Positions 2,955 to 34,533 of a stretch of DNA of 64,000 nucleotides are shown here, in pieces. Within the stretch, counting starts at the first letter, position 1. Each line of letters opens with the position of its first letter. The stretch is from a virus, in the IMG/VR virus record IMGVR_UViG_3300032242_003148, positions 32,001 to 96,000 of that record. The stretch is one strand, 5' to 3'. The notes beneath the pieces were generated by a model that saw nothing but the letters and a program-made list of their open reading frames with translations, was not told where the DNA came from and made no database searches. A program made the position numbers and the translations under genes.

Positions 2955-3157
2955 TAGAAGTATGTGTGTTCTTTTATGTCCTCCCTACTATTTACATACC
3001 CGCCAAAACTTTCGAATTGGCAGGTGTTGCACATAGTAACTTGGTATTCTTTGCCTTTGTCATTTGTGCCCTCCCACGTGGAAACATTTCTGCTCCCGCA
3101 GCAAGGACAATCTCCATCGGCTTCGCTTGTGTATATTGTTTTTCTTTTGATTGGCAT
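2954..3157 (-). CDS. Small Zn-ribbon protein
   Basis: CPCCGS...CNTC. Start re-assigned to the ATG at 3157 in a TAATATG junction with the polymerase stop. Confidence 0.6.
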   Translation of the reverse strand: MPIKRKTIYTSEADGDCPCCGSRNVSTWEGTNDKGKEYQVTMCNTCQFESFGGYVNSREDIKEHTYF

Positions 3158-24880: not shown

Positions 24881-24930
24881 TAAAAAACCTCCCTGGTGCG
24901 CTTCAGTGAGAGGCGTGGGAGGTATTATTT
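24881..24930 (-). terminator. Intrinsic terminator-like hairpin
   Basis: aaaaaacctccc...gggaggt with A/T tracts on both sides. Confidence 0.55.
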
Positions 24931-31006: not shown

Positions 31007-31228
31007 TCAAACGGATTTCTCGGAATATTTTTCAATAACCTGGTCAGGTCGTTTACCTACCCAAAATATAGCCAAATATGGGGGAGTGTTGTATTGGGCT
31101 ATCTCTTTATAGCTTGTGTTTAATCCTGCTAGGCTGTACGCCCTTTGCATATTCCAGAAGTCATTATAGTTGTCTGCTGTTGCTTCCCACCATTGTGGAA
31201 TTTCTACTGTGGTTTTTTTGTGTGTCAT
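31007..31228 (-). CDS. Hypothetical protein
   Basis: 73 aa with AAAACAC leader. Confidence 0.6.
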   Translation of the reverse strand: MTHKKTTVEIPQWWEATADNYNDFWNMQRAYSLAGLNTSYKEIAQYNTPPYLAIFWVGKRPDQVIEKYSEKSV

Positions 31229-31256
31229 GTGTTTTATGTTGATAGCTAAAAATTAG

Positions 31257-31337
31257 AGCTCAGGACAGGACTTAAAATACTCCACGTGCCATTGGAGCAT
31301 ACGCCTAATACCAGAGGGTTATTGGTTGTCCTGAGCT
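31257..31337 (-). ncRNA. Unknown 81-nt three-way-junction RNA module
   Basis: agctcaggaca / tgtcctgagct 11-bp perfect closing helix with two internal hairpins. Confidence 0.55.
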
Positions 31338-31608
31338 AGAATCACATTAGCCCTATATAGGCTATGTGGCAAATAAAATTTTCCGGATTGTGTTAGTCAC
31401 TGCCGGACCAGTGCTCCCAAGCCTGAGTGTGTCAGATTTAGAAAATGGTTAATGGTTGTTACTTTATAGGGCTAGAATAAATCTACAGGTTTGGACCCCT
31501 TTGAATTATTCTATCTGTTATTTTTTTGGGCGGGAAAGATATGATATCTCGCGGCCACAGACGGTTGTAACATTAATGATTTAACCGATAAAATACATTA
31601 CCAAATTT

Positions 31609-31767
31609 TCCCAGTAGTTGTAGCTCCTAGATGGTTGATTTCCTTTGTTCTCACATTCATCACCTGTATGCCTATGAGAGGATGTATCGTTTATCTTCAG
31701 GATTTCCACGTATACACACGGCGGCTGACGTGCTTCTCAGTGTGGGTTTTATATACAACTACTGGGA
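31609..31767 (-). ncRNA. Unknown 159-nt structured RNA module
   Basis: tcccagtagttgta (31609-31622) / tacaactactggga (31754-31767) 14-bp perfect closing helix. Internal cacgt/acgtg and tcctagat/atcttcagga arms. Confidence 0.6.
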
Positions 31768-31776
31768 TAAAAAGTG

Positions 31777-31961
31777 TTCCTCCACCCGCAGCTAGCTTCT
31801 CTCCCCCATGATGACTAGTCATGTTTCTTATTACTCATGCCTGATATAATAGAGGGATTACACGTGCAGGGAACTGCGGTCTCTTTCGCTTTAACGATAA
31901 CTGTAGTCGTGCAGTATTCGTCAAGCTATGAGCAAGGGGAGCGACCTCACCCTAGGAGGAA
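31777..31961. ncRNA. Unknown structured RNA module
   Basis: ttcctcc/ggaggaa closing pair and an internal ccgcag/ctgcgg pairing, in non-coding context. Confidence 0.4.
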
Positions 31962-32146
31962 AATTAATTGACCTATTCGCCCAAAACGTCTTCGGTCTAC
32001 GAGTTCTTCTGACACACTGGATCAGCTCTAATGTGCTGCCAGCTTATCGCAATGGGATTTCTCGGATAAAATGTTGCTCCCCTCAGTCCATGGTATTGGA
32101 CAAGAAGGGAGCGGGTTCGACATTCAAATTGGTGGAGGCGAGGGGA

Positions 32147-32799
32147 CAGATAATTCAAGAATTTTCATCCTTGTCTGGACTATTCCTTTTTCTTGGAGTA
32201 TGGTTGTGCTTTAACCGTGTTCAAGAAAAACCGCATTTATGAAATTGTCTATCCAATACACCGCTGGACTTATTGACGGAGAAGGAACCATTACTCTTAG
32301 TTATGATAATAAAAAAGATAAATGGCGAGCTCCTATCGTCTCAGTCAGCAGCACTACCCTTGAAATACTTGATGCCCTTAAAGAATCCTACGGAGGATGT
32401 ATTTGTAAGCATAAAGTATATAAGGATCACCATAAGCAGGCATATAGTTGGAGATGTCCAAGAGGTGGCGCAGTTAATCTTTGCGCCAGTCTTAAAGACG
32501 TCTTACTTGTACCTGAAAAGGCTTATCGCGCAAAAATGATTTCAGATAAGTATCCTAAATGTACACCTAGAAACGGTAAATACACAAAAGAACTTTCTGA
32601 AGCCAAATCTGAGTTTGAATATGATTTTTTCCATCCTAGTAAGCCATAGCACTTTCGTGATTTAGGCTCCTATGAGTCTCTAGCCAGCTTACTCCTTTCG
32701 GATTCACCGGACGGTGTTAGCATCAGCATTACCTGGAAGCTTTCGCCGTTTGAGCGGTTTTTTCACTGGATAATTACTTATCCAGGCGACTCTTTATGA
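32147..32799 (-). mobile_element. Group I intron in the tmRNA T-loop (653 nt)
   Basis: P1 CGAT|TC-ATAAA-GAGTCG with U-G wobble at the splice site. P2 hairpin 32766-32785. P/Q AAACGGCGAAAG / AACACCGT. R TAGAGACTCATA. S AAGGAATAGTCC. P9 hairpin, terminal G at 32147. Confidence 0.9.
32239..32649 (+). CDS. Single-motif LAGLIDADG homing endonuclease inside the intron, antisense to it
   Basis: YTAGLIDGEGTI motif, VSVSST...LDALKESYGG, YSW, 136 aa. Confidence 0.88.
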   Translation: MKLSIQYTAGLIDGEGTITLSYDNKKDKWRAPIVSVSSTTLEILDALKESYGGCICKHKVYKDHHKQAYSWRCPRGGAVNLCASLKDVLLVPEKAYRAKMISDKYPKCTPRNGKYTKELSEAKSEFEYDFFHPSKP

Positions 32800-33239
32800 A
32801 TCGAACCCCTGTCACTTACTCATTTCAATCAACCGTGTACATGCTTTTCACATTTAATATAAGAACCACAATAATGTGTAAAAGCGCAGTTCAGATTTCC
32901 AACTTAACGCAATTGGTGCGTATGCGAGTTATACCCTCACAACATAATCGAGGTACCCTTTTGTAGTACTGGGCATCGGGCGTCCCTGTACCGTTATTGC
33001 TACTAGCGGCTCTTGCCGCTGCGGTTAGGCAGCGAGAAGCTCAGCGTCAGCATAGCCATACTTTGCAAGAATGGCATCTGCCTCGGCGAGGCTAGGAGCA
33101 AGCATCTCGTTAGAGTTTGCTTTTATTTTTGTTCTCAGATGATTAAGGAGGCCAACTGAGTTCCTCCGCATGTGGGTGTGATATCTATTTGTAAGCTCGA
33201 GTGCCTGTAACGCCCCCAAATTTTTATAAGTGTATTAAA

Positions 33240-34022
33240 TTATTTAAGCCTAGTAAAGCAAAAGCTGCCTTCTGGAAGTTCTGCTCCGTTAGCTCCTGGG
33301 CTATAATAAACGTGAGGTTTAGAGGGTATTAATACCTTACCAAACTTCTTGGCGATTAACACCACTGTTTCCATAATGCCCAGAGCATATGTATGTACCA
33401 GATTTGAGGTGTTGTTTTTGGTGTTCCGTAGCCACATCTTATCGTCATCAACATAGAGCTGATGTCTATAAGCGGATTTCTCCCCGATCTTTATTGTTTC
33501 CTCTCTGGTATATTTACATCCACGAGCAAGCATGAATGTAAAAATAATATTACCAAGAGGTTTTAACATTTCGGTATCACTCAATAGTTCTTCTATATAG
33601 CCTATAATGCCTCTATTAAATGTACCCATGAAGTCTCCGTAAATGATGTCAAAACCAGCATCTGTGGGATTAAACATCCTAGAGTTAAAATCTCTAACCA
33701 CCACTTCTTCCCATTTGTTGGGTAGTAGTTCTGTTTTTACGTTTTTACCATTAATCGTGGCAGCTACTTCTAGCGCTTTCTTATAAACTACAGGATTTGA
33801 CTCTGTGCCTAGAAAGTTAATCTTATTATTAGGGAAGTTCTGAATCAACTGGCTCTCCCACAGCCACTTCTCTGCAGGTAATGATAAAACATTAACTGGT
33901 TGATTTCTATACTCACGATATGTCATGAGCTTCTTGAGATCCCTATTGATATAAAGATCATTGTCTCTTTTTGCCTTACGGGCAGGTGAAGCCCAATCTA
34001 TTACTTCTACGTTTTTAGCCAT
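33240..34022 (-). CDS. Class I SAM-dependent methyltransferase-like protein
   Basis: VLSLPAE motif I-like, FLGTESNP motif II, FDIIYGDFMG motif IV, GNIIFTF. Confidence 0.55.
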   Translation of the reverse strand: MAKNVEVIDWASPARKAKRDNDLYINRDLKKLMTYREYRNQPVNVLSLPAEKWLWESQLIQNFPNNKINFLGTESNPVVYKKALEVAATINGKNVKTELLPNKWEEVVVRDFNSRMFNPTDAGFDIIYGDFMGTFNRGIIGYIEELLSDTEMLKPLGNIIFTFMLARGCKYTREETIKIGEKSAYRHQLYVDDDKMWLRNTKNNTSNLVHTYALGIMETVVLIAKKFGKVLIPSKPHVYYSPGANGAELPEGSFCFTRLK

Positions 34023-34192: not shown

Positions 34193-34429
34193 AAATTCGG
34201 GGCGCGTTCCTGCCAAGACTTCTGCAATTGTCATTAGCAAGGCGGGTGGTTTGTTCATTGTCTTTGCAGAGAACCTATGAGGTTGTCACCAAATATGGGG
34301 TTATACCATATTGACCTATTAGGAGCGTACTTAATTACGATACGTTCCATTTTTGCTGCGCCCAATCCCCCAGCTAGTTTAGCCGGGACGCTCTATGCCT
34401 AGTTGGCTATTTATACTCGCATAGACGAG

Positions 34430-34533
34430 TTTGAAACACACCCGTGTTGTACCATACACAATCCAAAGCACGCACTAATTGGCTATGTATCGTCGCAGGA
34501 TCTCCCTGCACCCTATTCGGGGAGTGCTTCAAA
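34430..34533 (-). ncRNA. Unknown structured RNA module
   Basis: tttgaaacac / gtgcttcaaa closing helix (G-U on the minus strand), continued by cccg/cggg. Confidence 0.45.

Follow-up and report, generated by a model that had tools for sequence, protein, structure and literature searches.

Homing endonuclease genes (HEGs) in bacterial group I introns usually have the intron RNA as their message, and their translation can clash with the folding of the ribozyme. Introns in the T-loop of tmRNA genes (ssrA) have been known since the first tmRNA intron was described (Williams, 2002), and a tmRNA database survey of 2025 lists 883 intron-bearing tmRNA genes from 21 phyla (NAR Genom Bioinform, PMC11915505). 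LAGLIDADG HEGs were reported in 36 of these 883 genes, and 19 of the 23 in the founding set were placed in the 'P7.1 region' (PMC11915505). The words orientation, strand, antisense and opposite are not used in that paper, and its supplementary text files are silent on HEG orientation. The locus described here is like the published tmRNA T-loop introns in its site (position 7 of the T-loop, U at -1, terminal G), in its intron family and in the location of the HEG in the P7.1 region; it differs in that this copy is found on a phage genome and that its gene is antisense and interlocked with P7.1 and P7.2.

Endonuclease genes antisense to their introns are known from eukaryotic nuclear rDNA (PMC9548176), among them I-DirII and others in nuclear rDNA group I introns (Johansen et al., 2006, as cited in PMC3073962). 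As far as the summary in PMC3073962 describes it, I-DirII resembles the present gene in lying opposite to both intron and host gene and in needing its own promoter; the I-DirII type as summarised there is a His-Cys box enzyme of eukaryotic nuclei whose expression uses RNA polymerase II, spliceosomal introns and poly(A), whereas the present gene is of the LAGLIDADG type and belongs to phages and bacteria. In terms of protein structure, the closest systems are I-CreI, I-MsoI, I-TnaI and I-Vdi141I, which share their fold with the protein encoded here (Foldseek probability 1.00, TM 0.65-0.70). Members of this I-CreI group likewise possess one LAGLIDADG motif with an acidic residue and are intron-borne. 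However, they are only 14-20% identical to our protein, which is shorter (136 aa) and has ssrA T-arm DNA as its inferred target, and their genes are situated on the sense strand of rRNA group I introns, whereas ours is antisense. Regarding gene arrangement, Zeng, Bonocora and Shub reportedly described in 2009 a 'collaborative homing' of F-CphI and the psbA intron of cyanophage S-PM2. The likeness lies in relatives of our endonuclease that are free-standing near tmRNA genes with an ORF-less intron belonging to the family described here; it is a likeness of gene arrangement only, and the gene studied here is inside the intron. No description of an antisense HEG in a bacterial or phage group I intron was found in the literature searched, and papers on archaeal and cyanobacterial rRNA introns are silent on HEG orientation.

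The analysed stretch, called the window in the following, comprises 64 kb (positions 32001-96000) of a 165.6-kb record of an uncultured virus. We consider it likely that the locus represents a mobile, IA-like group I intron in the T-loop of a phage tmRNA gene, which bears in P7.2 an antisense I-CreI-type gene with its own promoter, the product of which would putatively home on the T-arm of ssrA.

The interrupted tmRNA gene

The tmRNA gene on the minus strand consists of two exons (Table 1). Its acceptor stem, GGGGGCG/CGCCTCC, includes the tRNA-Ala-like pair G3-U70 and is followed by ACCA; the pairing of acceptor stem and T-stem was checked. In minus-strand reading, the 5' acceptor strand GGGGGCG begins at 33217, T-stem and T-loop AGGGG TTCGAT are found at 32810-32800, and after 653 nt the sequence continues with T CCCCT CGCCTCC ACCA at 32146-32130. 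When the intron 32799-32147 was excised in silico, ARAGORN recognized a tmRNA of 435 nt, the tag of which has 31 aa and ends in ELLAA; at the predicted ligated exon junction GGGGTTCGAT is joined to TCCCCT. The tag is unusually long, 10 aa being the commonest length of tmRNA tags (2025 survey, PMC11915505).

Table 1. Features of the interrupted tmRNA gene and of the gene on its opposite strand (positions refer to the window)
Feature	Position	Strand	Evidence or remarks
tmRNA gene, two exons plus intron	32130..33217	-	acceptor stem, Rfam tmRNA, ARAGORN after in-silico splicing
tmRNA exon 1	32800..33217	-	5' acceptor strand, tag frame, pseudoknot region, T-stem 5' strand, T-loop bases 1-6
Tag reading frame ANSNEMLAPSLAEADAILAKYGYADAELLAA plus stop	33025..33120	-	ARAGORN, spliced sequence
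tmRNA exon 2	32130..32146	-	last base of the T-loop, 3' strands of T-stem and acceptor stem, then ACCA
Group I intron, 653 nt, T-loop position 7	32147..32799	-	P1-P9 plus P7.1 and P7.2; IA-like subgroup
P7.1 3' strand, conserved core ACUAGG	32637..32645	-	complement encodes Pro-Ser-Lys of the C-terminal His-Pro-Ser-Lys-Pro tail
P7.2 5' strand	32629..32634	-	plus strand: Phe-His codons near ORF end
P7.2 3' strand	32239..32244	-	complement is the ATG plus second codon of the ORF
P3 3' strand	32229..32234	-	pairs with 32759-32754 across the entire ORF
P7 3' strand, S element AAUAGUCC	32177..32181	-	pairs with 32680-32675; helix 10, 100% paired
Single-motif LAGLIDADG homing endonuclease gene, 136 aa	32239..32649	+	ATG-to-TAG, antisense to intron, fills P7.2 loop
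LAGLIDADG motif AGLIDGEGT, residues 9-17	32263..32289	+	D13 and E15 invariant in 34 homologues
Candidate promoter	32176..32204	+	TGGACT, 17-nt spacer, TATGGT inside the complement of P8

Standard annotation with ARAGORN and Rfam overlooks this phage tmRNA gene entirely or scores it below threshold. ARAGORN found no tmRNA in the unspliced gene, and together with Rfam at curated thresholds it yielded six tRNA genes and no tmRNA in the 64-kb window. With a relaxed threshold, the Rfam tmRNA model RF00023 matched 33200-32797 on the minus strand with 35.1 bits (E 1e-11), a match that ends inside the T-loop; the cut-off of this model is 47 bits, and what was scored is the unspliced gene, in which the intron cuts the 3' end off the match. 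Against a bacterial tmRNA exon-1 profile, exon 1 obtained an E value of 1e-28 (nhmmer). A blastn search with 31200-33300 gave no match among isolated phages, and the large terminase, in which a hint to the host was sought, had its best matches, at less than 30% identity, in Salmonella, Vibrio and Bacillus phages.

Some features of the neighbourhood may be mentioned as well. Directly downstream of the tmRNA gene, about 870 nt (31250-32125) are without a credible ORF. Upstream of the tmRNA gene, a tract free of ORFs contains a Pistol self-cleaving ribozyme (34362-34430, minus strand, 60.5 bits with a cut-off of 34.5), and a borderline abiF RNA motif was detected at 24887-24922 on the minus strand (37.3 bits with a cut-off of 37).

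Fold and strand of the intron

Judged by its sequence, the intervening segment is clearly a minus-strand group I intron, and its splicing is predicted from the fold. As reference we used the RNAalifold consensus of 24 ORF-less relatives of 257-297 nt, which comprises P1, P2, P3, P4-P6, P7.1, P7.2, P8 and P9 with compensatory changes in 39 of the 59 pairs. This consensus was mapped onto the window and then tested on alignment A4, which contains eleven ORF-bearing copies. Across 71 pairs and 11 copies, 94.1% of the cells were paired, compared to 34-42% when the 3' partners were slid, and both-side (compensatory) changes occurred in 40 of the 71 pairs; these values were reached by none of 500 shuffles. 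In P3, the two strands of which enclose the ORF, all six pairs change on both sides and 97% of the cells are paired, and P7.2 (helices 14-15) is paired to 100%. The additional stems P7.1 and P7.2, which follow P7 and precede P3', correspond to subgroup IA. The base at -1 is U and the last intron base is G; ten of the 11 copies retain the U-G pair of P1 (columns 8/20 of the alignment) at the 5' splice site, and the terminal G before the 3' strand of the T-stem is present in 11/11 ORF-bearing copies. One P4 pair (32745/32715, columns 67/105 of A4) is U-G in seven copies, and in the window and three others a C stands opposite an A, a combination that corresponds to the classic isosteric exchange of U-G by C-A.

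Since G-U pairs and GNRA loops exist on the minus strand only, the ribozyme strand is settled as minus. Covariation and G-U pairs thus fix the strand of the ribozyme, and hence the ORF is truly antisense to it. Homologues of the intron occupy the corresponding T-loop position in bacterial tmRNA genes, and ORF-less ones in loci L014, L028 and L035 reach 42-46 bits (E 1e-7 to 1e-8) with the Rfam model Intron_gpI, the cut-off of which is 50 bits. In the window, the Rfam group I model (RF00028) gave no match, even when E values up to 10 were admitted and the search was narrowed down to a stretch of 751 nt; the published tmRNA_intron covariance model is absent from Rfam.

The endonuclease gene and its overlap with ribozyme stems

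The ORF on the plus strand matches PHROG 5046 (E 1.6e-19) and Pfam LAGLIDADG_1 (PF00961; E 5e-4, 21.4 bits, under the gathering cut-off of 23.1), and a precomputed PF00961 match is present on several of its homologues. A large protein database contains 589 homologues of about equal length. Among 34 of these in an alignment, M1, G-x-x-D-G-E-G and T-x-R-N-G-K-Y are conserved, and the motif itself is invariant at G, D, G, E and G. In comparison to the 85%-identical copy in the related viral contig L002, dN/dS is 0.19 and 36 of the 59 differences fall on third codon positions; by this measure the ORF is under purifying selection. The 589 homologues and the dN/dS value rule out a chance frame. Within 22-45 kb nearly all ORFs of at least 90 aa are on the minus strand, and the endonuclease ORF is almost the sole one on the plus strand. 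The AlphaFold model (pLDDT 93.7) shows the order H-E-E-H-E-E-H of the LAGLIDADG fold, and the top 20 structure matches in the PDB are all of the I-CreI type, with the homodimeric enzymes I-CreI, I-MsoI, I-Vdi141I, I-TnaI and I-CvuI, each bearing a single motif, as the best (TM 0.65-0.70). A sequence search of the PDB matched LAGLIDADG chains only weakly (E about 0.5).

A preliminary description of this DNA, made from its letters, had reported a plus-strand ORF with a single LAGLIDADG motif inside the intron of a minus-strand tmRNA gene and antisense to it. The ORF from ATG to TAG together with the in-silico splicing, the AGLIDGEGT motif with its PHROG match and below-cut-off Pfam match, and the strand assignment of the ribozyme bear this out. 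The position within the ribozyme had to be corrected: P3' had been put at about 32666 and the ORF in the P8 region, while P3' is at 32234-32229 and thus follows the ORF in the RNA. In terms of the RNA, the ORF is inside the terminal loop of P7.2, between P7 (32680-32675) and P3'.

The gene shares its two ends with the stems that surround it (Table 1). At the start, CAT is already present at the position of the P7.2 3' strand in ORF-less introns. At the other end, after the Pro-Ser-Lys codons that complement P7.1, the ORF closes with one more Pro codon and TAG (32647-32649). The C-terminal His-Pro-Ser tail is limited to those relatives that are likewise encoded inside the intron and antisense to it (class A, see below). 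It is found in 29 of the 34 sampled homologues, and class A is hence common in metagenomes.

Expression of the antisense gene

Because gene and ribozyme are on opposite strands, the endonuclease is untranslatable from the intron RNA and a plus-strand transcript is needed, as the preliminary description had also concluded. The gene is probably expressed from its own plus-strand promoter, for which the sequence offers TGGACT-N17-TATGGT as a candidate. TGGACT at 32176-32181 is the complement of the P7 3' strand plus a flanking base and reads TTGACT in one viral copy; TATGGT at 32199-32204 lies 34 nt before the ATG, and TATGGTTG at 32199-32206 resembles the Bacteroidota -7 box. Altogether the candidate matches 8 of 12 consensus positions. 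A -10-like hexamer 16-18 nt after the anchor is found in 8/11 class A introns compared to 0/20 ORF-less introns with the TGGACT anchor, a contrast that is confounded by GC content and shared ancestry. A generic scan for promoters and terminators returned no promoter upstream of the ORF, the candidate site being under its threshold. Furthermore, a weak plus-strand hairpin with a T-run at 32745-32758 was noticed, which is not conserved in the other copies.

Regarding translation, GGAG or GGAGG precedes the ATG by 7-9 nt in 9/11 class A copies and represents the complement of the P3'/P8 junction. Neither the window nor the closely related L002 has a Shine-Dalgarno GGAG before the ATG, which fits this phage, where a Shine-Dalgarno-type motif was found in 3 of 39 genes. 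In the sole RNA run (X8), contigs cover exon 1 of a 91%-alike relative, and intron and endonuclease gene are uncovered.

Alternatively, instead of a promoter in the intron, a distant plus-strand promoter could drive the endonuclease gene through read-through, or its translation could be coupled to that of the plus-strand ORF 31928-32242 upstream. The upstream ORF ends in ATGA and thereby overlaps the endonuclease start codon, a shorter ORF with an identical ending exists in L002, and the match of the internal promoter is weak. Nevertheless, we regard this way of expression as unlikely: the upstream ORF crosses tmRNA exon 2 and the 3' half of the ribozyme, it is not conserved in length or start (104 aa versus 57 aa in L002), the neighbouring genes are almost all on the minus strand, and in the bacterial copies a Shine-Dalgarno motif and a -10-like box of their own are present within the intron.

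Mobility and possible targets

Contigs of public sequencing runs were compared against 31900-33300. In a 3.5-kb contig of a related phage from the freshwater DNA run X6, position 32146 is joined to 32822 via 22 other letters and the T-arm is intact, AGGGG TTCGAAT CCCCT, which represents a natural intron-less allele from another lake. The intron-less T-arm sequence is ACAGGGGTTCGAATCCCCTCGCC, that of the natural allele ACAGGGGTTCGAATCCCCTCGCCTCCACCA. Contigs from X2 and X4 carry the intron. In the 13-kb freshwater contig of X4, the unit of tmRNA, intron and endonuclease gene (32124-33220) is about 96% identical, and its flanks are unlike those of the window on both sides, hence the unit occurs in a mosaic context. 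Among close relatives the intron is therefore polymorphic in presence and absence at one site, the pattern by which mobile introns are recognised, and an intron-less allele in a related phage is what would be expected for a homing intron. In this indirect way, the earlier suggestion of homing between phages gains support.

According to the reading we favour, a homing intron with an antisense HEG, the precursor of the tmRNA comes from the minus strand, its ribozyme fold is intact, and a canonical tmRNA results once the intron is exactly removed, all of which follows from the sequence analysis. The protein would act as a homodimer and cut the uninterrupted T-arm DNA of intron-less ssrA alleles, with co-infecting related phages and possibly bacteria as targets, and repair from the intron-bearing copy would spread intron and endonuclease gene jointly. 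The antisense placement would keep ribosomes off the ribozyme core and uncouple the dosage of the endonuclease from the strongly transcribed tmRNA.

The record of the phage itself contains no uninterrupted target-like 21-mer with up to three mismatches. The T-arm of its own tRNA-Val is only 2 of 15 bases off the core site, so that recognition must reach beyond the T-arm into ssrA-specific flanks. The intron-less site had been called a pseudo-palindrome, which we could not reproduce: there is merely the 5-bp T-stem, and the best two-fold symmetry over 22 bp is no better than in shuffled sequences. The spliced junction scores 5/11, a value attained in 2000 of 2000 shuffles, and the natural intron-less allele scores 7/11, attained in 717 of 2000.

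Two other roles of the endonuclease have to be weighed against homing. It seems quite improbable to us that the gene is a passenger no longer promoting mobility, its product being inactive or a recruited maturase and its conservation coming from the overlap with the ribozyme or from the maturase role. Some LAGLIDADG proteins are indeed maturases, the ends of the ORF overlap conserved ribozyme stems, and the intron cores of the window phage and L002 are almost identical. However, third-position changes dominate over the whole length of the ORF and not at its ends alone, the catalytic D and E are invariant in the 34 homologues, ORF-less relatives hold the same fold without an internal protein gene, and the intron-less allele in the related phage represents a recent gain or loss. 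Very unlikely, finally, is a function in which the endonuclease mainly cuts the ssrA of the host or T-arm loci of tRNA genes and thereby lets the phage tmRNA take the place of the host copy, with the counter-transcript regulating splicing. In its favour, strong conservation of the T-arm and 3' acceptor strand of ssrA could make a host site similar to the target, the endonuclease family is tied to ssrA loci across many phyla, and a plus-strand transcript would fully complement P7.1-P7.2 of the precursor. However, the unit of endonuclease and intron is stably resident in chromosomal ssrA genes of several bacterial phyla, which points to ordinary intron mobility and not to a phage weapon, presence and absence between related phages is the ordinary homing pattern, and the near match of the tRNA-Val T-arm noted above demands a specificity exceeding the T-arm.

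Gene arrangements among the relatives

Eighty bacterial and about 80 viral loci, all encoding relatives of the endonuclease, were compared. At each locus tmRNA exon 1, T-stem, acceptor strand and CCA end were located, and a subset was checked with Rfam. At nearly all of the 80 bacterial loci a tmRNA gene is present within 1 kb. The loci were sorted into five classes. In class A, to which the window belongs together with three viral contigs, Marithrix, Methylococcaceae, Competibacteraceae, a Bacteroidaceae-labelled genome and others, the gene is antisense inside the P7.2 loop of introns of 640-677 nt. In class B (six loci) it is inside the intron after P9 in sense orientation. Class C comprises about 30 loci of Gamma- and Betaproteobacteria and Nitrospirota, where the tmRNA gene holds an ORF-less intron and its CCA end is followed after 41-237 nt by a free-standing endonuclease gene on the same strand. 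In class D (about 24 loci, mostly Bacillaceae) the gene is free-standing and convergent, and in class P (three viral contigs and one Acidobacteria genome) it adjoins permuted tmRNA genes.

The classes cluster in the protein tree, which needs 16 changes compared to 48.7 with shuffled labels; support is 95 for class B, 99 for class C and 93 for class D, and class A together with the neighbours of permuted genes forms one side of the tree (support 84). The antisense layout is common to eleven intron copies from phages and bacteria; on this sequence comparison it is a trait of the clade and not peculiar to this phage. Since bacterial tmRNA introns share it, the layout is only moderately new. What matters is that an intron family of phages and bacteria puts the endonuclease gene on the other strand, where its start, its end and its probable promoter are shared with ribozyme stems. 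Moreover, the free-standing, sense-internal and antisense-internal forms represent a natural series for testing how endonucleases invade introns. The occurrence on a phage genome, together with the intron-less allele of a related phage, suggests that phages as carriers could explain the spread of tmRNA introns over 21 phyla.

A more far-reaching reading, which we put forward tentatively and regard as possible, though less than probable, takes the intron and the backwards endonuclease gene as one interlocked two-strand unit, in which all expression signals would complement ribozyme elements: the -35 box would come from P7', the -10 box from P8, the ribosome binding site from the P3'/P8 junction, the start codon from P7.2 and the end of the ORF from P7.1. 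If so, the family at large may trace how a free-standing, tmRNA-specific endonuclease repeatedly entered the neighbouring intron, and phage tmRNA genes may ferry the unit between bacterial phyla.

Several loci deserve mention in their own right. At a distance of 33-600 nt, free-standing relatives follow the CCA end of tmRNA genes holding an ORF-less copy of the intron, either convergent in Bacillaceae (L014, L018, L020, L025-L027, L032, L045 and others) or on the same strand in Gamma- and Betaproteobacteria and Nitrospirota (L015-L017, L029-L047 and others). By analogy, this arrangement looks like a bacterial counterpart of 'collaborative homing'. At three loci a second tmRNA 3' end is found just past the free-standing endonuclease gene (L052 at about 2985, L053 at about 2919, L076 at about 2990), in L052 and L053 with complete T-loop, T-stem 3' strand, acceptor strand and CCA; this duplicate could be the displaced original 3' end. 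An intron-less tmRNA gene adjoins the endonuclease gene in L043 (2362-2389) and L079 (about 3000-3030), and both have the unusual T-stem GCGAG/CTCGC in place of GCGGG/CCCGC, which could be a change of the target site that protects the tmRNA gene; the endonuclease gene of L079 is degenerate in appearance. Permuted (two-piece) tmRNA genes stand directly beside relatives of the endonuclease in the viral contigs L085, L087 and L089 and in the Acidobacteriaceae locus L013.
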